This document shows, piece by piece, positions 4,133 through 54,800 of a stretch of 63,735 nucleotides of DNA (its first letter is position 1; each line of letters begins with the position of its first letter). The stretch is from IMG/VR virus record IMGVR_UViG_3300022592_000004, positions 1-63,735 of that record; one strand, written 5' to 3'. The notes under the pieces are model-generated. The model was given only the letters and a program-made list of their open reading frames with translations, searched no databases and was not told where the DNA came from. The stretch comes from a virus (Duplodnaviria > Caudoviricetes). Made by a program: the position numbers and the translations under genes.

Positions 4133-6861
4133 CAGCAGGAGCGGCAAAATATGGGAGCAGCCGCTTTGGAGTTGTAAGTTCGGGCCCGGACAGGAAGAAG
4201 CTCGAGTATTACATGGCCGATTTTATACAGATCGATGCCAGCGGAAACCTGCTCCTTTGGGGACACACGGAAGATCGGCCGAAAACCCCTCTTCTCATGG
4301 TGGCCATATGGGTCGGTGCTTGGGTCGAAGTGTTTGCCGCCGGCCTCCTCGAGGGCGAACGACTCAACAAGGATTGAGAAATGAAAACAGTAATCGTTCG
4401 AGGAGCCCTGGGAACGAGCTATCGGCACTTCTTCATGCTGCCTGGTGGGCCAGAAACCTGTGATCACGAGTGGAAATACATGATCATGAAACACGGGATC
4501 CGGAGATATGCCTACTGCAAGAGGACCGAGACGATGTTCGTGAGCCCGATGTTCCGCGAGGACAAGAAGTAATGGCCAACAACCGGATGTACCTCGTATG
4601 CACGCAGTGCCTGCAGACTCCCGACGTCCCGTGGGAAGACTGCCATCTATATCTGGCTAAATATTACCCGCACCAAGGCTGGTATTTCAACCGGGATCCC
4701 GGGAAAACCGAAACAGAGCTCGGCAAGTTCCTGGAGACTCACTCCCATAAGAGCCTGTTTGGCCAGGATTTCGCGGTCGTCTATGACACGATGATCCCCG
4801 GATTCCCCAAAGAGAAGTCAGACATACTACGGAAGGTCAGCAAATCTCTCTCGGAGAGGAAGTGATGTCGGCCATGGACCCCATAATCGATCTTTGCGGG
4901 GCGCTCGTTGGGATCATCCTCCTTGGGCAGATCGCCTACCTCGTTGGTCGCATGATGGTGTCGCTCTATCGGTTCGTTCGATATCGCCAGGGAAATCATC
5001 TGGCGGGATCCAGATGGACCTTTGAGGAATAGGACATGCATCTAAAACTTGTGGAACCTCTGAAGAACCTCCTGCGGCGGCAGCCGATAAACGAGATGGC
5101 AGTCGCGAAGCTCGAGCCAGGAGATTACATCATCGTCGTAAACAAAGGACAATTTGCCCGCAGCTCGACGGAGGTGCTCAGGGGACTACTGGAGCACCGA
5201 GGGATCACCGCGATCATGGTGCCCGCCGAGAACGTCGATCTGGCTCTCCGGATCTACCGGGTCGAGGGCGATCCCGACGAGCTTGTTAGGATCCAGGCGG
5301 AGATTGAGGCGAGGAAGAAGGGTTCTGGAGCTACATGGCTTGACCGCCTGTTTATCAGATCACGCAGCAACAAAGAAGGGAGTGAAAAATGATCCATATT
5401 TTAGTAAAGAAAGTCAAGAACAAGAAGGGCCGTCCGGTGTCAGGCGCGGTTACGGTCCACGGAATCACGGAGGACATTGTTGAAGCTGGACGCTGGGTCG
5501 ATTGGGCCGGCGGCCAACTCATCACGGCTGATGTGAAAGACAAGGCCAATCCATCAAAGGCACTCTTGACATCCGATGAGGTTGGGGTGCCGATGGAAGA
5601 AAAACAGGGATAAAACATGGAAAATGAACCTCCAAACAACGAACCGGGTCCAGTCCCAGGCATCAGCCACTCGCAACCCATAATGGCCAGGCTTGCCAAC
5701 CTGCTGGTCCAGGAATACGAAGACATAGTCGCTCAGCTCAATAAGATGCAATCTGTGGCTCACTATAACCACAAGACTGGTCTGCAGTGGAAGGAATTAG
5801 CCGAACATGAAACCGAAAGGCGCCGTCAGGCCCTGGTGAGCCTGGAATTCGAGACAGCCAAGGTATCTGCCGTGACGGCCGATATTGAGAAGCTGATGAA
5901 TAAGCTCCAGCGGATGACAGACGGCTGGGCGAAGGCCGAGGAAGAGAAAAAGGTTCTCCAGGAGGAGAAGCATCACCTCGCTGTTTGGCTTGAAGTGGCT
6001 CGGAGCCGCGAGCAGCAGTTAGAGAAGGACCTGCTTGTCGCGTCACAGCGCGTGGTTGAGAAAGAGGATCAACTCACCGTGGCACGGCAGCAATTATTGG
6101 CCCAGGGCATAGAGATTGGGGATAGGGACCTTCGAATCGCCAAGCTCGAGGGGCATGAGGATAAAACGTCATAGATTATCCGGGGCCCCAGGTTTGGGGT
6201 TGGCGGCTGGGGTCGTGTGGGGCAACCCCCATGGTCAACGCATGCGGCCCGCCAGGCAGACGCCGGCACGGCCTCGACAGGCCGGGCCCCGGACACTGAG
6301 AGAGGAAAAGAGGATGACAGGATCCATAATATTTGGCGGCATCGTCATTTGTGCGATCGTCATGCTGTTCATCGGGATGGACTGGTGGCACCCTCGCCGG
6401 ATGAAATCTCCGGTCGGGGAATTGCGAGCCAGAACCGGGGCGAACTTCATCGAGGTTAACGAAGAGAAGATGAATGAAACGCTCATTCTTTTTTCTTACT
6501 ACAGGTGTGCGCGTCTAGTGGACGGCAACGGGGGAAGAATGTATCATCCCTTGATCTACGATCAGTTAGATAGGCAGATCCAGGAGTTAGAAGCCAAACT
6601 CGTGAGGGAAAAGATCCTGGCGATCCTCGATATCAGCGCCCTCATCGAATCGTCCAAACACCAGGTAAAATAATGAAGAGGGTTTGGAAGAAAGTCGCCG
6701 TCTCGCCGGAGGTCGCCAAGATCTGGGTGTGCAGATTCTGTGGGTTCGAATGCTATCAGAGTTGCGGTTGGTGGCGCGAGGCGAGACGCAGCAGGCAGGA
6801 TATTGATCTGATCTATCGATTCTGGGCAGGGCGTCCTGCTCCCAAGGGGGTATCTGACTGA
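4129..6861 (+). CDS. run of small hypothetical genes (4129-4377, 4381-4572, 4572-4865, 5036-5392, 5389-5613, 5617-6174, 6314-6673, 6673-6861)
   Basis: abutting or overlapping start/stop codons; no recognisable domains. Confidence 0.55.
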
Positions 6862-7556: not shown

Positions 7557-8024
7557 TTATTTCTTCCTTGGTTTTTTGTTCAGCTGGAGGGATCGAAATT
7601 CTGCGAATAAAACATCTGCCTTTATTCCAAACTCCACGGGCAACGGGAGGAAATGGGGCGCTCCGTGATGCTTCCGAGAGGGGCTGTATGATCGACGGAG
7701 CGCATCCAACTCTAGGCAGATTTCTACCTGGCGCTGCTTTCCCTGTACATAAGGAAGGGCAAGCCTTAGAAGATTCAGTGCCTCTTGCTGGCATAACCTC
7801 AAACGATAATAAGCCGAGCGGCGGCCATGCGATCGCGTATAGAGCCGTTTGGCTCTCGGAAGTAGAGAATTTACAAAATCGATCGTCTTTTTGTCCACCA
7901 TCGTCAATTCGTAGCGGATTACATAGGCTGGAGTCCTTCTCCGGGGGCCTGTATCGCGCTGAATGCCAACATGGCTCTCTGCATCAATCATTGCGGCAAG
8001 ATATCCAAGATGCCATTGTTTCAT
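7557..8024 (-). CDS. LAGLIDADG homing endonuclease (single motif)
   Basis: GYLAAMIDAESHVGI motif and LPYVQGKQRQ; AAAGGA RBS on the minus strand before ATG 8024; only convincing minus-strand gene. Confidence 0.85.
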   Translation of the reverse strand: MKQWHLGYLAAMIDAESHVGIQRDTGPRRRTPAYVIRYELTMVDKKTIDFVNSLLPRAKRLYTRSHGRRSAYYRLRLCQQEALNLLRLALPYVQGKQRQVEICLELDALRRSYSPSRKHHGAPHFLPLPVEFGIKADVLFAEFRSLQLNKKPRKK

Positions 8025-8070
8025 CGGAGTATCCTTTGCGTTGTCACCGTGCACACACACAGGAATATAA

Positions 8071-10862: not shown

Positions 10863-11869
10863 CGAGAACAATATTCGAACCCTTTATGACTTATGCCAAA
10901 AAGATCGAGGCCGCCACAAAGTTCGGAAATCTCCTGGAACCCGGGGACGATCGCGATCGCATGTTCAAGAGGTATTCCAAGATTGTGCATCCGGATGTCG
11001 CGCCGGAGCCGCTCAAGGAGAGGGCTGAGGTCGTGTTCGCGAGACTGAACCAGCTCTACAGCGAAGAAACGAAGCCTCCCATTGTGCACCCGGTTGTAAT
11101 TGCTGGCTATGTCGTGATGGGGCCGCTCTCCAAAGGGGATATCGCAGATCTCTATGAGGCCCAGCACGCCGCCGGCGGAAGATTCGTGCTGAAGATTTCC
11201 AGGAGTCCGAAGGATAACGACCTCATGGATCGAGAGGCCGCGGCGCTCAAGGTTCTGCGTCCACCAAAGCCGAGTGTCAATGACATCGACTTTTTCAAAT
11301 ATATTCCAGAACTCCACGCCTCAACAAAAGCATCCGGCCGCCGCGTCAATGTGATCAGCGAGGCCGTGGATTGCATCAGCCTCAAGGAGATCGTTGCGTG
11401 TCAGGACGGAATAGGCGACTTCCGCCACATCGTGTGGATGGGGAATCGCGCCTTGAGCGCTCTTGGATATCTCCACCGGCAGGGCGTGATCCACGGTGCG
11501 GTGCTGCCACCGCACCTGATGTATCGGCCTGCAGACCACGGGTTTCAGTTGGTCGACTACTGCTACTCGTGCCAGGTCGAGAACAATGAGAAAGTGCCGG
11601 CGATGGCCAAGGAATATCAGGATTGGTACGCGCCGGAGATCATCAAGAAGAGGCCGGCTTCGGCCGCGACGGACATCTTCATGCTGATGACGACATTGAA
11701 AAAAGTCGCCAACAACATGCCAACTCGATTTCGGGATCTTATTACCTGGTGCACAGCAGGTTCGCCGGCCTCCAGGCCGGGCGACGCCTGGTTTGTCCAG
11801 GATAAGTGGGCGACCCTGGCGAAAGAAGAGTATGGGAAGCCCAAGTTCGTGCCGTTCACACTTAAATAA
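10859..11869 (+). CDS. J-domain (HPD) plus protein-kinase-like fold, probably a pseudokinase
   Basis: YSKIVHPD; KGDIADLY, VLKIS, LHRQGVIHGAVLPPHL (no HRD Asp), LVDY, YAPE. Confidence 0.8.
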   Translation: MTRTIFEPFMTYAKKIEAATKFGNLLEPGDDRDRMFKRYSKIVHPDVAPEPLKERAEVVFARLNQLYSEETKPPIVHPVVIAGYVVMGPLSKGDIADLYEAQHAAGGRFVLKISRSPKDNDLMDREAAALKVLRPPKPSVNDIDFFKYIPELHASTKASGRRVNVISEAVDCISLKEIVACQDGIGDFRHIVWMGNRALSALGYLHRQGVIHGAVLPPHLMYRPADHGFQLVDYCYSCQVENNEKVPAMAKEYQDWYAPEIIKKRPASAATDIFMLMTTLKKVANNMPTRFRDLITWCTAGSPASRPGDAWFVQDKWATLAKEEYGKPKFVPFTLK

Positions 11870-11885
11870 CGAAAGGAAATCACCC

Positions 11886-12923
11886 ATGGGTGGAAGTAGC
11901 TATTCAAAACACGATTACGACAGCCGAAGCAGCATGCGGTCGAGCCATGCCGCGATTCACCACATGTCCATCGATGACGCGACATTTGCCCACAGCCGCG
12001 ACATCAAGGACGGGACGATCGCCGCGAAAGTCCACGCAAGTCTGGATCCGAAGGGCGTGAAGATCCGCGAGGCTCGGGACTCAGACAAGCATCCGGTCAG
12101 CGTTCCGGTTGCGATCCTTTGTGACACGACCGGATCGATGGGCGGCGTTCCGAAGATCATCCAGAAGGAACTCTCCCACCTGATGGGCTGCTTCCTGGAT
12201 GACAAGGCGTCCGGCAAGAAATATCTCGGCGAGGGATATCCGGCGATTCTCATCGGCGCCGTCGACGACTACGACGCCATGGCTCACTTTGGCCATAATG
12301 GAACGTTGCAGGTCGGGCAGTTCGAGTCCGGAATCGAGATCGATGACAATCTCACCAACCTCTGGATCACCGCCATGGGCGGAGGAACCTACGACGAGGA
12401 CTATGAGCTCGGCCTCTATTTCATGGCCCGGCACACGGCTCACGATCACTTCGAAAAGCGCGGCCGCAAGGGATACATCTTCATGATCGGCGACGAACAC
12501 GCCTATCGGAGGCTTCGCAAGGCCGTGGTGGCGGACATCATCGGCGACACCCTTCAGGAAGACATGACCCTCGAGGAGATCCTGAAGGAAGCCCAGGAGC
12601 GCTACCATGTGTTCATGATCATTCCGAACATGACCAGCTACTACAACGATCCGGAACTGGAAAAGTGGTGGGTCGGTCATCTCGGACAGCAAAACGTGAT
12701 CAAACTCGCGGATCCGGAGAAGATCTGCCAGTGTATCGTTTCGGCCGTGGCGATCTGCGAGGAATACGTCGGTCTCGACGAACTCGTCGCGGACGGCGTG
12801 GCTGACAAGAACGTCTCGGGTGCACTGGTGCACCTGGCCAAGGCGGCCGGAGACATCAGCAGGTATTCCGCGGACGGTCTGCCGGCGGTCGCGGGCGCTC
12901 CGGGAGGAGTCGATCGCCTATGA
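11886..12923 (+). CDS. vWA-domain protein
   Basis: MIDAS DTTGSM; LQVGQFES, GGG and FMIGDE motifs. Confidence 0.8.
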   Translation: MGGSSYSKHDYDSRSSMRSSHAAIHHMSIDDATFAHSRDIKDGTIAAKVHASLDPKGVKIREARDSDKHPVSVPVAILCDTTGSMGGVPKIIQKELSHLMGCFLDDKASGKKYLGEGYPAILIGAVDDYDAMAHFGHNGTLQVGQFESGIEIDDNLTNLWITAMGGGTYDEDYELGLYFMARHTAHDHFEKRGRKGYIFMIGDEHAYRRLRKAVVADIIGDTLQEDMTLEEILKEAQERYHVFMIIPNMTSYYNDPELEKWWVGHLGQQNVIKLADPEKICQCIVSAVAICEEYVGLDELVADGVADKNVSGALVHLAKAAGDISRYSADGLPAVAGAPGGVDRL

Positions 12924-13258
12924 AAGTCAGGAAAAGGCCCGTCATCATCGATGCCGAGGAATTCGTTCTCGGGAAGGTTCCGCGACCGGATGGCGTTGAG
13001 GCCGTTTTGGTGTCCAGGCAGAACGAGCACATCTGCCTGGGGAGATATACCAAGGATACGGATCCGAACGCCTTTGACGCCGACGTAGCATTTGGGGTCT
13101 TCACCAGCGATGGGTGGAAGACCATCCACAGTGGAGACTTTGTCATGACAGGAGAAAAGGGTGACAAACGGGTCTGCACACGCCAAGTCTTTGAGGAAAT
13201 CTTCGAGATCGTGTCAGATGATGGAATAGACGGTCCGCCGTTCAACTGCGATCACTGA
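12920..13258 (+). CDS. phage protein of the RKKPVxIxA type
   Basis: MKVRKRPVIIDAEEF...GDFVMTGEKG...FEEIFE. Confidence 0.6.
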   Translation: MKVRKRPVIIDAEEFVLGKVPRPDGVEAVLVSRQNEHICLGRYTKDTDPNAFDADVAFGVFTSDGWKTIHSGDFVMTGEKGDKRVCTRQVFEEIFEIVSDDGIDGPPFNCDH

Positions 13259-13265
13259 GGAAAAG

Positions 13266-14597
13266 ATGAGAGCGTTTCTGGTTGCTGGTCTGGCCTTTGG
13301 GGACGAGGGCAAGGGATCGATGGTGGATTTCCTCGTCCGCCATTACGGCGCCAAGCTTGTCGTGCGCTATAATGGTGGACCGCAGGCGGCTCATAACGTG
13401 GTGACCCCTGACGGCCAGCACCACACCTTTTCGCAATTCGGGTCCGGCAGCTTTGTTCCCGAGTGCCGGACCCTTCTCTACAAAACAATGCTCGTGGATC
13501 CCTATGCGATGCTCAACGAGGCGGAAGTCTGGGCCAAGAACCATCCTGAACTTCCCGGCCTACTCGGGCGGATCACGGTCGATCCGGGCTGTGTTGTGAT
13601 CACGCCCTGGCATGCGATGGCGAACAGAATTAAGGAAGAAGCGCTTGGAACCGCAAGGCACGGGTCCTGCGGGCTGGGGATAGGCGAATCTCGATCCGAT
13701 CAGGAAAACGGACTGTGGTTTCAGGTTTCCGACATTTTCTCCGATGCCGGCACATCGACGAGACTGCTCGCGGCGATAAAGGGGAAAAAGATTGAGGAGA
13801 TGCGCGAGCTCTCGAATGAGACCGATTATGGGCGCAAGATGCTTCGGCGGATGAAGGATGTCGATCCCCACGAATTGCTGTTCTTCTATCGTGAGAAATG
13901 GGCCCCAAGGATACAACTCGCAAACGTGATGGATTTTCTGCGAGGGTCTTGGCATGAGACCGTTGTGTTCGAGGGGTCGCAGGGAGTTCTCATAGATCAG
14001 GATCTTGGGTTTTTCCCCTACGTGACCTGGACGGACTGCACATTTGGAAACCTGCGCATTCTCCTTGCCTGCATCGCCAGATACGCTGAACTCGAGGTTG
14101 TTAAGATCGGCGTCACCCGGGCCTATTTCGTGCGCCATGGTCCTGGCCCGTTCATAACCGAGACGAGCAGCCACGGGTATCCCGAGAGGTATAATGCGAA
14201 CGGCCCGTGGCAGGGCCCCGTGCGGAAGGGGGATATTGATTTCGTCGCCCTGCGGTATGCGCTCAAGGCGATTGGCGGCGTGGATCGGCTTGCCCTGACG
14301 CACATGGATTCGATCAACAAATACGGGACCCAATATTGCGACGGGTATCGAGCGGAGCATATGGGTTCTCTGATCAAGGACATTGCCGGCGTTCAGCTGA
14401 CCATGCTCGATCAGTTCCAGCCTCACCTAAAATCCACCGTCAACATGGTCGAAACCGCCGAAGAGCAACTCGGAGTTCGAGTGGGCTACACATCATGGGG
14501 GCCAACCGCAAATGACAAATTGGTTGCGAAATCTGTTGAAGAAGAAATACTCTCCGTACCAGTGGGCACGAACTCACATGAGAAAAGTCGAGTGTGA
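13266..14597 (+). CDS. adenylosuccinate synthetase-like protein (divergent PurA family)
   Basis: GDEGKG, RYNGGPQAAHNV, HGSCGLGIGE, FEGSQGVLID, PYVT, RHGPGPF. Confidence 0.85.
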   Translation: MRAFLVAGLAFGDEGKGSMVDFLVRHYGAKLVVRYNGGPQAAHNVVTPDGQHHTFSQFGSGSFVPECRTLLYKTMLVDPYAMLNEAEVWAKNHPELPGLLGRITVDPGCVVITPWHAMANRIKEEALGTARHGSCGLGIGESRSDQENGLWFQVSDIFSDAGTSTRLLAAIKGKKIEEMRELSNETDYGRKMLRRMKDVDPHELLFFYREKWAPRIQLANVMDFLRGSWHETVVFEGSQGVLIDQDLGFFPYVTWTDCTFGNLRILLACIARYAELEVVKIGVTRAYFVRHGPGPFITETSSHGYPERYNANGPWQGPVRKGDIDFVALRYALKAIGGVDRLALTHMDSINKYGTQYCDGYRAEHMGSLIKDIAGVQLTMLDQFQPHLKSTVNMVETAEEQLGVRVGYTSWGPTANDKLVAKSVEEEILSVPVGTNSHEKSRV

Positions 14598-16003: not shown

Positions 16004-16910
16004 ATGGCGGTCCAACAATGCCCGAAATGTGCCATCCTGCAGGATGTAAGCCGTAACATGTCTGGGAAACTTGCCGTTCCCGGTGATGTTTTCATCTGTC
16101 CGAGCTGTGGCGGAATTCTTTCCTTTACGCTCACCCTCTCCGTCAGAAGCTTCACCTCGGAGGAGATTCGCCGCCTCGAGGCAGATGACCCGATGACCTA
16201 TGCGCACATAAAAGACAAATCGGATCAGGCTCTCGACGAAGCCACCAAACCGGAACGGCAATCGAGAAATACCGCAGATGCCAGACGAGGGGTGAGAAAT
16301 GCTACCTGAATCCGGGCCGCCGTGGGAGCTCTATCACAGACTATGGACCACCGCAGTTGGAACAGAGGGTTACGATAAACGAGGTTGGCAACTTCTTGGG
16401 GAACTGCTCTTCAGGTTCCAGTCATATAGTCTAATCCAGGAGATCAAGGGTCACCTGGAAGAAGTAGAGAGGAGGGCCAGAGATGCCAAGCGAGGAAAGA
16501 TGGGTAATACCCAGAAAGAGGATCCCAACGCATGCGTTCAAGATGGTGTGGCCGGCGGCAGTCCTTTGGCTTTACCTGGATCGATACCATGCGCCGGCGT
16601 GGCTGATGGGAGTTCTGGGAACACTGGTGGGGATGACGTTCGTGGGACTCCTGACGCAAATGTTCCGAGAAAGGAGCAGGGAGATCCTGTTCAGGCCGGA
16701 CAGTCAGGAGGAGATCCAGGGTCGGCGCTTCCCGGATTCTTGGAAGAAAAACAAGATCAGCACGTAACCCACGGGGGATGCATGCACTTGGTGCTTGACA
16801 AGGTGGTCCAGAACCTGGATGGGATCGTGAGATACCGTTGCTATATCTGCGGGTCGCTGTTCACAATCCAGCCCTCCTCGCCGATCACGGAGGCTGAGCA
16901 CCATGGCTGA
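16004..16910 (+). CDS. two hypothetical genes (16004-16309 Zn-finger; 16299-16910)
   Basis: CPKC...CPSC; GGAGG RBS; second ORF less certain. Confidence 0.5.
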
Positions 16911-17172: not shown

Positions 17173-18675
17173 AGAGATCGATGCGGTCAATGAGGTTCTC
17201 CACAACTTCGAAAGAGAGCTGGGAGAGACTGCAGCCGGCAAGATACGACTTCTTGGGATTCTGTTGGGCGTTCCCAATCCGGAAGGATCCTATGGGGTGC
17301 TCGCAGTCAAATCCAACCGCATGAATGACGAGGAATTCACCAACATTGTCAGGGGAACCGGGGAATGGATGTTCCAGAAGTCAGTCCAGTAAGAGTTTCC
17401 ACGTATGCCTGTCCCACTGGAGGAACCGATATGGTTGTGCACATCGAGGATTCCCTGTTTCGTGAGCAGAGCGTGGCAATTAGGCTTGTTGAAGAGGCCG
17501 TGCGTGAGGTTGTCAAACGCTGGGTCGATGAGAACTATACCGAGGTCGTGAAGGGAATGGATCAGCAGGCGATCGCAAATCTTGCTGTGGCCGATGCTGC
17601 CGCTGCTGTCGGCAAGGCAATTAGGGAGAAAATCCCAGACAAAGTTCTCCACGTCGAAGGGCCCGGCGCGGTATACCAACGTGGGATCTTGGGAGGTCTG
17701 AGAAAGATTCGATGAGCGACACCGTACCTCCACTGTCAGATGCAACACCTCCGTTCCCCCAATGCCCGGATTGCGGCCTGGAGTTTCAACCAGGGCATCT
17801 GTGTAAGGAAAGCATGATCGAGGAGATCTCGAGGATGCGTGCCGCCTTCCAGATCTCCGTGGGTACACTCGCCCGGGTCAGAAACGCAACCATGATGTGG
17901 CGCCGCGGGCAGGAAACTGAAAAGCTGCGCGAGGTGTCGTTGATGGTGAAAAAGGCGCTCGCCGATATCGAGGAACTGATCTGCAAGGAACAGAAAGGCA
18001 AGATACTCCCGGATGATCTTAGTCTTTAAGTTTGTGGTTGTTGGTCAGATAAAGGAGAAGTGATGGCAAAGACAGTTCCAAGTTTCGGCACAATCCACGC
18101 GGCTACCAGGATCGGATACAAATGGGCCCCCGATTTGCGGCTCTTTGTTCGCGTCACCCAGGTTGGCGCGTTTTATAAAGTTGAGATCCAGCCTCCAACC
18201 TTCGATGCCCGGATAGGGGTCCAGGTTGTGACAGTCGGCGATGCGGTCACGCATGCCAGTAGAGTCTCTCTTTGGCACGGCCAGGAGGGGATTCTCGGGT
18301 ACATGCCGGTGCTCAATAAATACATGGGGAAATCGACGCCGCACACCTTCTATATGGACGACGACGGTTTGGAACTCCCGCCGGAGATAGGCGGAGCTGC
18401 CGACCGGAAAACGGCTCCGATCGCCGACCTCAAGATCGCGGAGCCTCCCAAGGAGAACTGACATGTCCTGCTGCGGCCAGGCGCGACGCGCCGTATCCCT
18501 ACACAACAGATACGTGACCTATGTCCATCTCACTACCGGGAAGCTCTCCGTCCATGGAGGCGTGACCGGAAGCACCTACGTGTTTGACGGCCCCGGCGCC
18601 AGAGTGAGGATTGATATACGAGACGAGTCTGGCATTGTCCACCTCCTTTCGACGGCTCTCAAGAAGGTAGACTAA
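17120..18675 (+). CDS. hypothetical genes (17120-17392, 17431-17715, 17712-18029, 18063-18461, 18463-18675)
   Basis: packed ORFs with RBSs. Confidence 0.55.
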
Positions 18676-18686
18676 ATAACTTTCTG

Positions 18687-18715
18687 TTGACAAGGTTACT
18701 CTACTGTGACAGCAT
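18687..18715 (+). promoter_or_regulatory. promoter upstream of the solitary CRISPR-like repeat
   Basis: TTGACA at 18687, followed by TACTGT at 9 nt or TG-a-CAGCAT at 17 nt. Confidence 0.6.
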
Positions 18716-18721
18716 AGAGCA

Positions 18722-18757
18722 GTCGTCGCCTGCGTGGGCGTGGGCGTGGATTGAAAC
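18722..18757 (+). CRISPR. solitary type I-C-like CRISPR repeat unit (not an array)
   Basis: GTCG...CGCCT-GCGT-GGGCG hairpin...GCGTGGATTGAAAC; one copy and no cas genes. Confidence 0.65.
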
Positions 18758-18777
18758 AAACAAACAAGCAAACAAAC
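18754..18777 (+). repeat. AAAC microrepeat
   Basis: AAACAAACAAACAAGCAAACAAAC. Confidence 0.85.
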
Positions 18778-18787
18778 GGGAAAGCGT

Positions 18788-19018
18788 ATGCAAGTAAGTT
18801 TTCGCTTCAACAGCCGCCGCGTTCAGATTGTCCTCGAGCCGACGAACCTGATCGACGAGTCCAATCTGGCAACCGCGTGCATGTTCGGCTCTAAACCAAT
18901 GGGAATCAAACTGGGCTCCGGGAAAGAGGTCATCATCGAATCGGAGCTGATCGCCGGGGAAAATGAGAAAGATAAGGAAACCAGGGCCACCCAACGCGGA
19001 CAAGACGCACTGTCCTAA
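18788..19018 (+). CDS. hypothetical protein
   Basis: 76 aa ORF after the repeat. Confidence 0.5.
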   Translation: MQVSFRFNSRRVQIVLEPTNLIDESNLATACMFGSKPMGIKLGSGKEVIIESELIAGENEKDKETRATQRGQDALS

Positions 19019-19199
19019 AGGGCATGCCTACGAGGGAGACAATGTTCTCACGTATGCCTCGAAGACTGGACAGGTCAGGAGGGTCTGTCGCACGTGCGCC
19101 CTAAAAAAAGCGCGGCAGTATTACAAAACGATCAAAAAAGCCAAACATCCGCGGAAGCCTGGCAGGCCTCGCAAGGATGTATTGAAAAAGAGAGGATAG
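18963..19199 (+). CDS. small Zn-binding basic protein (HNH-associated type module)
   Basis: NADKTHCPKGHAY...RVCRTC. Confidence 0.65.
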   Translation: MRKIRKPGPPNADKTHCPKGHAYEGDNVLTYASKTGQVRRVCRTCALKKARQYYKTIKKAKHPRKPGRPRKDVLKKRG

Positions 19200-20093: not shown

Positions 20094-20222
20094 GTTCCCT
20101 GGCACTGAACAGCTTACATGTTAGCTCATTTGGTAGAGCAACAGCTTTTCAAGCTGTGTGTGACCAGTTCGATTCTGGTACATATCCCCGAAAGGGGAAA
20201 CGCTGATCGACTTCCAGGGAAC
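20094..20222 (+). ncRNA. Y RNA-like unit 1; cargo is an unpermuted tRNA body (anticodon UUC) plus a GAAA hairpin
   Basis: stem GTTCCCTGG/CCAGGGAAC, CACTG, TACATG, CGACTT; D arm GCTC/GAGC, ACAGC-TTTTCAA-GCTGT, ACCAG-TTCGATT-CTGGT; no CCA. Confidence 0.75.
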
Positions 20223-20231
20223 ATAAAGTTT

Positions 20232-20319
20232 GGAGGAATGGCCGAGGGGTTGAAGGCGATGGTCCTGAAAACCATTATGGGGTGACTCATCGTGGGTTCA
20301 AATCCTACTTCCTCCGCCA
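20232..20319 (+). tRNA. tRNA-Ser(UGA)
   Basis: GGAGGAA/TTCCTCC acceptor, long variable arm, G73-CCA; loop CCTGAAA (C33). Confidence 0.85.
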
Positions 20320-22241: not shown

Positions 22242-22375
22242 TGGCGGTCACTGAGAACGGTTACATGGTTAAGACAATCGTTTGAAAAACGATCAATCTG
22301 GGTTCGAATCCCGGGCCCCCCGCCTCGAGGGGGGGTTCGTCAAAGAGCAACACAACCGTAGTCGACTTACCGCCA
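22242..22375 (+). ncRNA. Y RNA-like unit 7; permuted tRNA mimic (anticodon GAA) opened in the D loop
   Basis: stem TGGCGGT/ACCGCCA; GGTTAA-GAC, ATCGT-TTGAAAA-ACGAT, CTGGG-TTCGAAT-CCCGG, GCCCCCC/GGGGGGT, TC-GTC. Confidence 0.8.
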
Positions 22376-22588: not shown

Positions 22589-24061
22589 ATGGCAGAAGCA
22601 ACGAAGATCACGAAGAATCAGATCATCTCTGAACTGTCGAAATCGCCCCACGGCGACCTGAAGGAATACGTTCCTACAGGAAAGGTCGCTGCGTCCGCGG
22701 AGCCGGAGTTTTTTGCGCACCTCATCGCCTGGGACCGAACCAACGGCCAGGTAAGAGACGCGAAGGCCGCCCTGCCTGTGGTGTCTCTGAGCGTGGCCGA
22801 CTTCCCATCCGAGCTGGTGGAGAACTCACTGGCGCACCTTGCCAAGCTGAATCCCCGCGAGCTCCTCAAGGCATATCGCTTCGCGATCGCGATCAAGACG
22901 CCGGGGCATGGTAGGCGCCTGAAAAAGTTGGTTGCCGCCTATCTTCGGGAAAAGGAAGGCAACGGATGGGATCGAATCGCTATCCAACATCGTCACGTGT
23001 TGAAAGAATTGTATGCCCTTATTCACATCAAGCCGGGTCCTCATGCCGATGCGGTCTTGTTCAAGGGCCAGAGGCCCCCCAACTCGATTTTCGACCTGGT
23101 TGCCAGGCTGAAGGACATGAGTCCCCAGGAAGCAGCGGGGACCATCCTCGAGCGCAAGATTCCCTTTCTTATTGCGACCGGGGCGCTCGGAGCGAAGGCA
23201 AAAGAGCCAGACCTAGTTCTTGCGCTCATTGAGCGCATGAGCCCGACAGAAGTCGTCACCAACACCAAGATGTTGGAGAGGCTGGGCGTCAAGGATGTGC
23301 CTGCGCTCCGGGCGGCATTCGAGTCTGCTCTGGAGCGGGCGAGCAAGTCAAAAAAGACTACCTTCAAGGCCAGCGTGGCCATCGATGCGCTCGACGATGA
23401 CAAATTGAAGGCAAAACTCTCCGGCGTACAGGAGAAGCAGATTCAGGCTCTCGGCGGAGTCGAGGGCAACTGGCTGGTCTTGGGTGATAAGTCCGGATCC
23501 ATGCAGAACACGATTGAGATCGCACGCCAGGTTGCCGCCACTCTCGCCAAGATGGCCTTGGGACGCGTGATCCTGAGCTTCTTCGATATAACGCCCGAGA
23601 CCATTGACGTCACCAACCTGACCTACGACGAGATCAAGGATAGAACGAAGAGGATCACAGCCGCCGGCGGAACTTCGATCGGATGCGGTCTCATGGCTAT
23701 TCTCGATCGCAAGGTGGAAGTCGACGGCATCGCCATCATCTCGGATGCGCAGGAGAATACCCCTCCGGTGTTCGTGAATGCCTATAAGGAGTATTCAAAG
23801 TTTGCGGATAAAGAAGTGCCGGTCTATCTCTACCGCTGCGCGTATGAAGCCCAGGGTTGGGGGGACGTCGACCTGGCAAAGGCCATGAAGCAACATGGGT
23901 TTGATTTGCAGGAGTTCGATCTGAGAAAGGGAGTCGACTTTTATTCGCTCCCAAACCTTGTCAAAACCATGCGGACCAATCGGTATAGTCTGATCGATGA
24001 GATCCTGGCCACGCCGCTTCTGAGCCTGAGACAGGCGTTTCAGGAGACGGTGCAAGATTAG
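22589..24061 (+). CDS. divergent Ro60/TROVE-like protein with C-terminal vWA domain
   Basis: PEFFAHLIAW, GRRLKKLVAAY and LKELYALIHIKP (cf. Ro60 HKDLLRLSHLKP); MIDAS DKSGSM, GGTS, IISDAQEN; AAGGGAG RBS. Confidence 0.75.
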   Translation: MAEATKITKNQIISELSKSPHGDLKEYVPTGKVAASAEPEFFAHLIAWDRTNGQVRDAKAALPVVSLSVADFPSELVENSLAHLAKLNPRELLKAYRFAIAIKTPGHGRRLKKLVAAYLREKEGNGWDRIAIQHRHVLKELYALIHIKPGPHADAVLFKGQRPPNSIFDLVARLKDMSPQEAAGTILERKIPFLIATGALGAKAKEPDLVLALIERMSPTEVVTNTKMLERLGVKDVPALRAAFESALERASKSKKTTFKASVAIDALDDDKLKAKLSGVQEKQIQALGGVEGNWLVLGDKSGSMQNTIEIARQVAATLAKMALGRVILSFFDITPETIDVTNLTYDEIKDRTKRITAAGGTSIGCGLMAILDRKVEVDGIAIISDAQENTPPVFVNAYKEYSKFADKEVPVYLYRCAYEAQGWGDVDLAKAMKQHGFDLQEFDLRKGVDFYSLPNLVKTMRTNRYSLIDEILATPLLSLRQAFQETVQD

Positions 24062-25221: not shown

Positions 25222-25227
25222 GAACAT

Positions 25228-25299
25228 CCGGGCGTAGCGCAGGGGTAGCGCACATGCCTTGGGAGCATGAGGGCGCCCGTTCGATTCGGGCCGCCCGGA
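25228..25299 (+). tRNA. tRNA-Pro(UGG)
   Basis: CCGGGCG/CGCCCGG, CATGC-CTTGGGA-GCATG, GCCCG-TTCGATT-CGGGC; CCA not encoded. Confidence 0.85.
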
Positions 25300-25308
25300 T
25301 ACCTAATG

Positions 25309-25383
25309 GGGGACCGTAGCTCAATGGTAGAGCATTCGGTTGTGGCCCGTTTGATGGCGATTCGAATCCGTCCGGTCCCTCCA
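25309..25383 (+). tRNA. tRNA-His(GUG), atypical
   Basis: G-1, GGGACCG/CGGTCCC, loop TTGTGGC, U73-CCA; mismatches in anticodon and T stems. Confidence 0.75.
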
Positions 25384-51812: not shown

Positions 51813-54800
51813 TGTCATTCTTTTCGCGACTAAAGCAAGACGTTCTGGTCTCGGCCAACAACAGCTCCAATGCAAATCTCGGGGGTGGCGCCTCCTTCAC
51901 GGGGACGTCAGAGGGAACGCTCGGGATCAATGCCGTCCAGGTCGCTCTCAAAGCTGACCAAAACTGCCTGGTCCAGATAGAACAGTCCATTAACGGCTCC
52001 GACTGGGATATCATCGATACCCTCGGCTACGTGATCATAAAGCCAGGTGCCTGGACGGTCATGGCGGTGGCATCGTTCGTCAGGGTCGTTGTCACCAACA
52101 TGAATGCTACAACCGCGACGACCTTCTTCAGACTCCAGACCCTGCTCTGCCCGATCGCCAATCCACTTCCCAATTCGCTGAGCGACGAGGGGAATCTGAT
52201 GGTCGGCGTTTATGAGATCGAGGGAGACTTCGCGACCAGAGTAGAGGTGACTCCGCACTCGGCTCTCAGGACGGTTTCACCTCTGAGGCTCGTCGGCGGG
52301 GAATTCGAACAAGCCTTTGACACGAGCTTTTGGACCAAGACAAGCCAGGTAGGAACGGGAGATTCTGTCGTCGCGAATTGCGTCAACATCCTCTCGACGG
52401 GGACTACGAACGCTTCCAGCATTATCGTAAACTCCGCGAGGGTTGGAAGGTACGCCTCCGGCACGGACAATTATTTCAACGGCGAGATCCGATTGCCGGC
52501 CGTCACCGGAATAAACACCCGCAGATGGGGCGCGTTTAACACGAATGACGGATTCTTTTTTGAGCACGACGGCACAACGCTGAAGGTGGTCACAAGAAAG
52601 GGTGGATCTCCTACATCCGTATCATCGGGTTCCTTCAACGGGTATCTGGGGGCGACCTACGTCCCGGGAACCAATGTCCACTTTTACGAGATTCATTATA
52701 CAAGGGATGGCGTCTGGTTCTTCATCGACAACAGACTTCTCCATCACATTGCGGCAACAACCGCTACCCTGACCAACGAAGTAGCGCTCCCTGTCGGCCT
52801 GGAGAACACTAACGGTGCGAATATCAATAACAACCAGCTCGAGGTATGGAGCGCGTCGATCTATAGAAATGGGCCGATCAGCACTCAGGCACAGTTCCTT
52901 CACCTAAATGCCCTGGCAACGACCACACTCAAGAAGGGGCCCGGGAACCTCCAGAGGGTCATAATCAACAACGTCGGGTCGGCGACGGATACGTTGACGC
53001 TATATGACAACACCGCGGCCTCCGGACTCATCATCGGCATCATTCCCCTTGGGGGCACGGCGATAGTGGTTCCTGTTTCCTTGGATTATGGTGGACTGAG
53101 CTTCAACATCGGCTTGACGGCCGTCATCGCCTCCGGCGTAACACCTGGAGACGTAACGATCTTGTTCGAGTGAATCATGCGAGAAGACGACGTACAGATG
53201 TTTGGGCCGATAAAGCCAGCAGTGGTGAACCTTGTCTATGGAGCGACCGTCGCTACTGATTGCTCGCTTGGCAATCACTTCAGGCTCACGGCCACCGGAA
53301 ACTTCACCCTGTCCAACGTGTCGAACCCGACCGATGGCCAGAGGCTCCTTTGGGAGATCCTGCAGGACGGAACCGGAAACCGGCTGATAAGTTTGGACAC
53401 AAACTTCACGGTGCCGTCGAATCTGCCGGCCATAATCCTCAGCACGAGCCCGAACGTAAGCGACATGCTCAGCGGGATCTACAACTCGGCTCTGGGAAAG
53501 GTCGTCATAACGGGTTTTGGAAAGGAGTATTTCTGATGTCAGTTCCAACTTTTCTGGTGGGGGTGCTGAACACGGACTTCAACTATCTCTCGCACCTAGC
53601 CGTGACCGACACGATCACGATCCTGAACGACCTGAACACGCAGCTGACGGCGCTAGGCTGGACCTGCTCGGTAGCCGGCGCGAGCCCGAATGCAGTGGGC
53701 ACCTATACATCCCCCGTCAGGTCCGACGGCGCATCAATCAAGGTTGTAGCCACACAGGTTTCTGCGACCGCCGTAAAATATGTGGTTACCGATCATACGG
53801 GGCTTCAGGTCAATAACGCCACGAGCACTCAACAGCAGATTGCCGTTGCCGGAAATGAGGTGAGGCTCTATTGCAACATGTTCGGCTTCTTCGTCGACAG
53901 CATCCAAGCGACTCCCGAGTGCTGGGGCGCTGGAATCCTTGACCAGACTCCCGAAGCTATGACTGTTCCGAGAGCCAATTACTTCGCCACCGGCGGTCCG
54001 AGGAATAATGCTGGGACGATCAACTCTCAGGCGTGGGAGGCGCTTTGGGTTCTCGCGCCTGGAGGGACGGCCTATGCGTTGGGGGCGGCTGCCGGCAGTC
54101 GGCGGGCGCCATCCGTGGGGACATTTACCAGGACAACATTTACCGGAGCCCTGATGTTTGCGCCCATGGAGATGGGCAAGGGCGGTGGCGATCCTCTTCT
54201 TTATCTTTTAGGCAGAGTGTTTCAGGCCCTCATGCTGGATGGCGCACAGATATTCGGGGCGGAGTTTACAGTCCCCATCGATGTAGCCGTCACCGGGGTA
54301 TTTAAGGTCATCGGGCTCGCCACGGCATCAGCCGCGAGAATTTGCGCACGAAAATCTTAGGAGGATTCTATGGCAGTCCAGGCGTTCCTGGCCTCAAGTT
54401 TCAGATTTCTGGAGATCAGAGGAGTTACCGACGTTGCGACCATCATCACCAATTTTGGAACGGAGGTGCTGGCGAATAGCCCCGCGTGGACGGGCGCGAA
54501 TCCTTACACGTCACCAACGGATATTGGCGACCCGAGATTTATGGTCGTTACTCTGACCCGGACCTCGCAGTTCAAGCTGGACGTCGCGATCGCGGATCAG
54601 CTCGGCAATACGATATGCACTCGGCGCCTAACCATTCCTTCTGGCCCGCTAGTGACGGTCAGGATCTACACTGGCAGGTATCACTTTCACATCGACGCGG
54701 ACAACGGAAACGCAGCGCCGGGATATGTCGGTGGAGGGATCCTGGATGAGAGCCCAGAAGCGCAGAACGCCCACAACCATTATGTGTTTGGGAATGGATC

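Follow-up and report, generated by a model that had tools for sequence, protein, structure and literature searches.

The window, meaning the whole 63,735-nt stretch of Caudoviricetes DNA analyzed here (IMG/VR record IMGVR_UViG_3300022592_000004, ~60% complete by estimate), carries a single type I-C CRISPR repeat unit within the 112-nt gap between the + strand open reading frames (ORFs) 18463-18675 and 18788-19018. The unit stands in sense orientation behind a promoter-like motif that recurs in the phage and in front of a coding ORF, and is considered here as a candidate RNA anti-CRISPR (Racr), the function put forward in an original prediction made from the letters of the window. Genes of the window lie mainly on the + strand and include terminase, portal, four tRNA genes, a Lar-like protein, a DNA methylase, HNH nucleases and a PurZ-type adenylosuccinate synthetase; none of the 32 window ORFs scanned with Pfam belongs to a Cas family. 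The features of the locus, with tandem runs as reported by Tandem Repeats Finder (TRF), are:

18687..18696, + strand: TTGACAAGGT, a -35-like hexamer with a conserved 3′ extension, a repeated motif of the phage
18707..18720, + strand: two overlapping -10 readings, TGaCAGCAT (extended -10) and TAGAGC (18715-18720)
18720..18724, + strand: 5′ flank CAGTC, including an extra GTC prefix; predicted outer helix with GAUUG of the handle
18725..18757, + strand: solitary type I-C repeat unit of 33 nt, composed of GU, a stem (18727-18734/18739-18746), a loop (18735-18738) and a handle (18747-18757)
18732..18749, + strand: (GCGTGG)x3 tandem run within the unit (TRF: period 6, 3.0 copies, 100% matches)
18754..18777, + strand: A/C-rich AAAC tract (AAAC AAAC AAAC AAGC AAAC AAAC) at the spacer position (TRF: period 4, AAAC x6, 90% matches)
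18778..18784, + strand: Shine-Dalgarno (SD)-like GGGAAAG, 3 nt before the ATG; similar GGGGAAA/GGGAAA precede the ATGs at 867 and 18963
18788..19018, + strand: 76-aa ORFan; its SD and start codon are no farther from the handle than one I-C spacer (34-35 nt)

The solitary type I-C repeat unit

The TTGACA hexamer, the single GTCG...hairpin unit and the AAAC tract on which the original prediction was built are all present, both in the sequence and in the TRF output. GTCG...GCGTGGATTGAAAC spans 18722-18757, with the canonical repeat start at 18725 (GTCGCC), because aligned 32-nt natural repeats begin with GTCGCC and the GTC before them comes from the end of the preceding spacer; GTC at 18722-18724 is an additional 5′ prefix. 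The 8-bp stem (CGCCUGCG/CGUGGGCG), which includes two G-U pairs, closes a UGGG loop of 4 nt and takes its 3′ arm from the (GCGTGG)x3 run. The extra TGGGCG copy, previously regarded as unusual, is part of this run and builds the stem of a naturally sized 33-nt unit. Immediately 3′ of the stem lies the 11-nt handle TGGATTGAAAC, exact in every position; across 64 natural consensus repeats, the columns that it occupies (18747-18757, UGGAUUGAAAC) show little or no variation. The AAAC tract is predicted to be unpaired, and the fold of 18720-18762 has a predicted energy of -17.5 kcal/mol (z -2.5), equalled by 5 of 200 shuffles.

An outer helix in which the 5′ flank pairs with handle bases GAUU(G) is predicted for all three GTC-prefixed units (the window unit and L126 and L127 of the viral set described below), and none is predicted for units lacking the prefix. 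With three sequences, this link between GTC prefix and outer helix in the modeled folds is a lead only.

Natural repeats were gathered with a pattern that began GTCGNCGCC, GTC prefix included, and that matched >120 genomic stretches, mostly 32-nt repeats after GTC-ending spacers. A "35-36-nt repeat class" read from these matches proved wrong, the GTC belonging in most of them to the preceding spacers. The 111 arrays yielded 65 unique natural consensus repeats, measuring 32 nt in 43 cases, 33 nt in 16, 31 nt in 5 and 37 nt in 1, a length range that includes the 33-nt unit. Comparison with these repeats, a check proposed along with the prediction, returned a close I-C match: the nearest consensus repeats are identical at up to 29/33 positions (gapped), with differences confined to the distal stem and loop, and the 15 nt GGCGTGGATTGAAAC plus the 5′ GTCGCC are identical to natural repeats.

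A covariance model built from 64 natural I-C repeats was run on both window strands with filters off, and its E-values are rough. It gave one window match, at 18725-18757 on the + strand (32.5 bits, E 5.9e-7), and a runner-up of 9.6 bits (E 2.6). The training repeats were gathered with a pattern taken from the window unit's own ends, so that these ends fit the model partly by construction. The call of a solitary type I-C-like repeat is upheld, and the same search detected no second repeat, not even a degenerate one, in 63.7 kb of a record covering ~60% of the genome. A hairpin at 51889-51908, considered as a second I-C unit, has a stem that resembles I-C but no handle, scores 9 bits and is taken as chance.

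The assignment to subtype derives from natural loci. I-C cas genes (Cas5c, Cas8c/Csd1, Cas7/Csd2, Cas4, Cas1c and Cas2, identified by NCBIfam) adjoin arrays of the repeat class in 9 of 10 loci, directly upstream and in the same orientation; the tenth, L030, shows pst genes only on the side examined. Because nine of ten natural loci flank I-C cas genes, the repeat class is, by genomic association, type I-C.

In a canonical I-C repeat the overhang measures 2 nt, the stem 7 bp, the loop 5 nt and the tail 11 nt (PMC8524198). Recognition by Cas5c is directed mainly at the stem base, the 3′ overhang and the UGG downstream of the cut rather than at the loop or the 5′ overhang; variation in the distal stem and loop is tolerated, and Cas5c remains on the 5′ handle after cutting (PMC8524198). 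Like the canonical repeat, the 33-nt window unit has a 2-nt 5′ overhang and UGG plus the 11-nt tail directly after the stem. It differs in its 8-bp stem with two G-U pairs, its 4-nt loop from (GCGTGG)x3, its GTC prefix and its solitude, and its stem sequence is absent from all arrays searched; the corrected pattern, run over viral contigs, gave 0 matches. All Cas5c recognition features are retained, and the unit diverges from natural repeats only at tolerated positions.

The first pattern also matched eight viral stretches, of which L123 and L129 are arrays and L125 is a two-repeat mini-array; solitary units are present in L122 (two, ~490 nt apart), L124 (identical to L128), L126 and L127. Array repeats score 39-53 bits on the covariance model versus 31-41 bits for solitary viral units (L126 35.2, L127 31.6, L122 40.6 and 32.0, L124 39 bits), with the window unit at 32.5. 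L126 aligns with the window over 55 nt (87%, E 4e-8), extending past both repeat ends (TAGAG.CA before, AAAC.AAC.AG after), and also has a methylase homologue common to the window. In L126 a capsid protease gene and a small + strand ORF diverge from each other, and the unit occupies the space between them, 27 nt ahead of the small ORF; it must have its own promoter because the region is divergent and intergenic. A metagenome scan with the TAGAG flank for further family members gave seven stretches, all true arrays. Virus-borne mini-CRISPR arrays resemble the window unit in placing a host-type repeat on a virus without cas genes, and differ from it in holding more than one repeat. In the mini-array of L125 (2683-2781, reverse strand), ~29 nt of spacer is duplicated before the first repeat.

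Promoter context, downstream ORFan and the AAAC tract

TTGACA occupies 18687-18692 and opens TTGACAAGGT, ~30 nt upstream of the unit. The motif TTGACARGGT occurs 6 times in the window versus 0.19 expected, a count reached in 0 of 100 shuffles. Its sites lie at 16795, 18687, 19622, 19770 and 29971 on the + strand and at 23955 on the - strand, four of the six within the small-ORF region at 16.8-19.8 kb, and it is a putative phage-specific promoter or operator motif. No consistent -10 is found downstream of the six sites. At 18687, TGaCAGCAT is placed 17 nt from TTGACA, with TG at 18707-18708 and a +1 near 18722, and TAGAGC 22 nt from TTGACA, with a +1 near 18727; the predicted +1 falls on the unit's first base or close to it. 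GCATAGAG also follows TTGACA at the promoter-like site 19622 (2 matches versus 0.12 expected).

The 76-aa ORF has a codon score of 0.234 in frame versus -0.56 and -0.52 off frame, and confident phage genes score 0.10-0.37. A database search with it matches only itself, it has no Pfam or PHROG family, and structure predictions are unusable (Atlas predicted local distance difference test, pLDDT, 0.44; AlphaFold2 pLDDT 51.2, predicted template modeling score, pTM, 0.22). One I-C spacer length from the handle runs from 18758 to ~18792 and spans both SD and start codon. A hairpin 3′ of the tract is weak only, formed by 3 bp plus 2 bp over the SD region. The end of the ORFan is overlapped by a 78-aa ORF (18963-19199, + strand) that matches only the middle of HNH-endonuclease PHROGs (1e-11), putatively a stand-alone zinc-ribbon or HNH fragment.

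The low-complexity AAAC pseudo-spacer, also held to be unusual in the original prediction, is found again behind solitary I-C units elsewhere, both in viruses and on bacterial chromosomes. Comparisons of the tract were post hoc and exact-word based, and some units are possibly related by descent. As a baseline, AAAC starts 0.39% and AA 8.2% of spacers at 5,170 repeat-spacer junctions of arrays. A viral scan for the handle plus AAAC returned 44 stretches with 37 distinct units, 34 of them solitary; within this AAAC-selected solitary set, a second AAAC is present in 6/34 and an SD plus ORF start within 60 nt in 13/34. The tract of L161 is identical to that of the window in 15/16 letters and that of L157 in 14/16, and L168 has (AAAC)5AAGC. 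An unbiased viral sample, drawn with a 14-mer alone and covering the matches listed, comprised 35 solitary hairpin units and 56 array junctions. Among these listed matches, the A fraction of the next 12 nt is 0.40 for solitary units versus 0.23 for arrays, an SD plus start codon follows within 60 nt in 7/35 versus 2/56 (Fisher p 0.025), and AAAC follows in 2/35 solitary units only, versus 0/56.

Bacterial genomes searched with the handle plus AAACAA yielded 96 distinct units, 47 solitary and 49 in arrays. Where enough downstream sequence is available (45 solitary, 42 array), the A/C fraction beyond the required letters is 0.67 for solitary versus 0.53 for array units (p 2e-4), and the sequence continues with AAACAAAC in 10 solitary versus 0 array units. 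An ORF of at least 60 aa starts within 70 nt of 26/45 solitary units. The genes behind bacterial units include der, pyrG, tpiA, upp, flgK, a UvrD-like helicase, a lambda-type portal, a resolvase, HicA, Uma2 and DUF2726, and in several chromosomal units (AAAC)n directly abuts the ATG. L342 (Thiocystis violacea) and L389 both have the exact 16-mer AAACAAGCAAACAAAC (window 18762-18777), following repeats whose stems differ. This recurrence behind solitary I-C units in viruses and chromosomes points to a function of the tract itself, for which the original prediction had suggested avoidance of self-targeting; by these sequence comparisons, the tract is a recurrent feature of solitary I-C units and not private to the phage. 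An origin as an array trailer remnant was rejected, trailers being without the tract (5/53 start with AA). No description of the AAAC tract or of such a leader was found in the literature searched, which comprised main texts only, in part.

Several related loci came to light in the same searches. I-C-like hairpin-handle plus AAAC units lie a few to ~40 nt upstream of core genes in L305, L344, L363, L335, L394 and L353, and copies from Burkholderiales have a common AAATTCGYYCC...GGGGCGTGGATTGAAAC with compensating stem changes. L142, a Latescibacterota metagenome-assembled genome (MAG; G001:C1:28000-42500), contains an I-C operon with two repeat-like units, at 7954-8050 and 13235-13277. In the first, between cas3 and cas5c, 27 nt separate a repeat-like unit from a degenerate hairpin with a T-run behind it; the whole looks like a gene for a crRNA-like RNA (crlRNA; crRNA, CRISPR RNA). 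The second, between cas1 and cas2, is solitary and is followed by AAACAAAACAAA and the cas2 ATG. A repeat-like unit in L110 (reverse strand, ~6760-6810) follows TTGCAA-17-TATAAA and precedes a histidine-phosphatase gene by 11 nt; it lies ~940 nt past the point where an I-C array ends. A solitary I-C unit plus (AAAC)4 in L374 (reverse strand) runs directly into the 5′ end of an apparent tRNA gene (GCCGGCGTAGCTCAGGGGTAGAGCA). On a Planctomycetota chromosome (L133, reverse strand, ~437-470), a divergent solitary I-C unit lies between two near-duplicate coding-like segments, ~2.5 kb upstream of a true array.

Decoy, leader and guide readings of the unit

The best single reading in our analysis, to which we tentatively assign a probability of about 0.45, is a Racr-like RNA decoy that would capture Cas5c and Cas7. 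It builds on what has been published for solitary repeats: a type I-C system is inhibited by RacrIC1, and interference also drops in the presence of a non-targeting crRNA (PMC10651486). The unit would be transcribed early from the TTGACAAGGT promoter as the extreme 5′ end of the ORFan mRNA, and in a host with a type I-C system this RNA would mimic the pre-crRNA repeat. Cas5c would recognize the stem base, the UGG and the 11-nt tail, would probably cut after the stem and could stay bound to the UGGAUUGAAAC handle, while Cas7, perhaps with Cas8c and Cas11, may load onto the unstructured AAAC-rich leader. Cascade subunits would thereby be tied up without a useful guide, leaving fewer for phage-targeting crRNAs.

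The unit shares with Racrs and viral solitary repeat units (SRUs; RacrIC1, Camara-Wilpert et al. 2023, PMC10651486) a single sense repeat mimic in a viral intergenic region, no adjacent array or cas genes, and I-C sequence and hairpin; a promoter-like motif lies just upstream of it. RacrIC1, unlike the window unit, shares a bicistronic RNA with an acrIC5 homologue that lies 11 nt upstream of it, and RacrIF1 is a discrete small RNA (PMC10651486), whereas the window unit appears to head an ORFan mRNA with an AAAC-rich leader and no recognizable acr gene. I-C solitary repeats having been published, the element is of a known kind, present here as a variant with a conserved AAAC-rich leader before a gene. 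If it acts as a decoy only, it would lengthen the list of I-C Racr candidates by one, contributed by an uncultured phage from a pond that probably has a 2-aminoadenine genome, a useful but expected addition.

Several observations weigh against the decoy. SRUs were defined by a promoter within 250 bp upstream (PMC10651486); at the window unit TTGACAAGGT lies 29 nt upstream together with TG and a -10 hexamer, CAGCAT, that matches TATAAT at 3/6 positions only, and the sigma-70 consensus scan lists 19622, not 18687. The unit, proposed to have its own promoter, is positioned directly behind TTGACARGGT (6 versus 0.19 expected) with a predicted +1 at ~18722, as had been proposed, but the consensus scan and the -10 do not bear this promoter out. 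Because the terminator scan finds none separating the unit from the 76-aa ORF, which has a codon score like those of confident genes, the unit is, as far as its sequence tells, a 5′ mRNA leader and not a discrete small RNA. The reading as a stand-alone RNA gene is accordingly abandoned, and for the anti-CRISPR function put forward in the original prediction RacrIC1 provides a validated precedent in the subtype. The predicted outer helix pairs part of the handle and might hinder rather than help Cas5c. Rfam gives a sub-threshold CRISPR-DR9 match only (18.8 bits versus a gathering score of 45, E 0.11), and the corrected pattern, run over bacterial genome contigs, returned nine stretches, none with the window's stem. 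The sequencing runs listed as carrying window DNA include no RNA run. No acr-like neighbor was recognized, the two flanking ORFs and five nearby small ORFs being without a family. Cas8c is detected in only 14/40 carrier genomes (versus 0/14 control genomes), although its absence is weak evidence because many carriers are MAGs and possibly incomplete. Finally, a pure decoy does not explain a handle-plus-AAAC module before the housekeeping genes der, pyrG, tpiA and upp.

The many units just before start codons fit neither a decoy nor a crRNA-like regulator fully and suggest a cis-acting leader that would work through Cas5c and Cas7 occupancy. In this alternative, which we consider unlikely though worth serious attention, repeat and AAAC tract would form a Cas-responsive 5′-untranslated-region module and any decoy effect would be secondary: Cas5c would cut at the stem base and stay on the handle, Cas7 would coat the next 34-35 nt including SD and ATG, and translation or stability of the downstream gene would depend on the level of free Cascade protein. 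SD and start codon of the ORFan do fall within one I-C spacer length of the handle, and the excess of such starts behind solitary viral units over array junctions among the matches listed, although obtained with a crude ORF-start criterion on small, post hoc samples, points the same way, as do the 13/34 of the AAAC-selected viral set. Chromosomal units preceding der, pyrG, tpiA, upp, flgK and others, several with (AAAC)n abutting the ATG, the unit of L142 placed with AAACAAAACAAA before the cas2 ATG inside an I-C operon, and array trailers devoid of the tract favor it further. Some chromosomal matches (e.g., a Clostridia group), however, have poor hairpins and may be unrelated, the low count of Cas8c carriers tells against a leader as well, and neither an experiment nor a paper on Cas5c or Cascade control of translation was found in the literature searched.

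A broader form of this idea is more doubtful: the handle and (AAAC)n may constitute a mobile, widely reused 5′-leader module of phage, prophage and core bacterial genes under Cas5c/Cascade control, serving here as a sensor-switch for the ORFan, possibly an anti-defense protein, while the RNA soaks up Cascade. The architecture that recurs across many viruses and bacterial chromosomes (a hairpin whose sequence is free, then the exact handle, the conserved A/C tract and a start codon) raises the question of whether Cas5c and Cascade act on mRNAs besides CRISPR transcripts; if they do, gene control linked to CRISPR would have a new layer, and a compact leader of this Cas-responsive kind might be useful for engineering.

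To a crRNA-like regulator (Cracr) we give somewhat less credence again. Here the 11-nt handle and an AAAC guide would steer Cascade by partial pairing proximal to the protospacer-adjacent motif (PAM) to a host promoter and repress it, the target being cas genes or a CRISPR-guarded toxin or defense system; it implies a TTC or TTA followed by a AAACAAACAAGC-like site at a cas or defense promoter of the host. Single-repeat I-C units are known to yield crlRNAs of 48-50 nt that carry an 11-nt handle and repress promoters (10.1101/2024.12.27.630466); copies of such RNAs, I-C ones among them, are known from phages (10.1101/2024.10.29.618823). The window unit resembles Cracr RNAs and crlRNAs (CreR/CreA and I-C SRUs supervising defense systems; 10.1101/2024.10.29.618823, 10.1101/2023.03.10.532045, 10.1101/2024.12.27.630466) in its single I-C-like unit, guide-like stretch and 11-nt handle, and in that the PAM-proximal stretch is conserved between independent units: the 12-16 nt after the handle are conserved behind different stems, as in L161, L157 and the exact 16-mer of L342 and L389. 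It is unlike them in its low-complexity tract of variable copy number, in the lack of a clear 3′ hairpin and in having a coding gene other than cas5c downstream. Because the AAAC copy number varies between units, the guide register shifts. A guide of the Cracr or crlRNA kind pairs with a host cas, toxin or defense promoter at 9 or more PAM-proximal positions. A search of 5 carrier genomes for TTC-flanked targets of the tract found none; near-matches there are as frequent as in a reversed control, and two of 11-12 nt lack TTC; PAM-plus-seed matches in the CRISPR loci examined number 2, about the chance expectation, and L142 has a related unit and no target near its own cas locus. The absence of a second repeat and the weak 3′ hairpin also count against a guide.

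A functionless relic, a piece of a host array gained by recombination in which (GCGTGG)3 and (AAAC)6 grew by replication slippage, is improbable. The tandem runs, the score below array repeats and the lack of relatives that could show purifying selection are what it would leave behind, but the handle and stem base are exact with differences at tolerated positions only, the unit is in sense orientation precisely behind a repeated promoter-like motif, its flanks are in common with L126, and its tract recurs behind other solitary units. Least credible is a single-guide unit against competitors, a repeat inserted beside a protospacer so that the phage sequence behind it would serve as a guide directed at relatives lacking the insert: the self copy would be protected, because AAC and not TTC precedes it, but the guide is a low-complexity tract common to unrelated elements, unlike a captured protospacer, and the flanking genes are without relatives in the collections searched, leaving no empty site to compare.

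The phage record

Window DNA is present in pond and viral metagenome runs from four studies, and contigs of four DNA runs from two of these studies show zero differences from the window, with 18722-18781 masked as repeat in the comparison. INPHARED contains no relatives of the phage, and an IMG/VR search with three proteins near the unit retrieved none. Spacers from ~130 CRISPR loci gave chance-level matches only to the phage, of ≤23 nt and several within repeats.

The PurZ-type enzyme (13266-14597, + strand) matches Pfam Adenylsucc_synt (5e-55) and PHROG 1211, "2-aminooxy adenylosuccinate synthetase" (1e-67), and is preceded by ORFs 11793-12923 and 12920-13258. Its presence suggests that the phage genome may carry 2-aminoadenine in place of adenine (Z-genome). 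A Z-genome is itself an anti-restriction trait. The four tRNA genes are Glu-TTC, Ser-TGA, Pro-TGG and His-GTG, and tRNA regions lie at 20115-20319, 25227-25383 and 22259-22314, including a weak partial tRNA-like Rfam match (31.5 bits).

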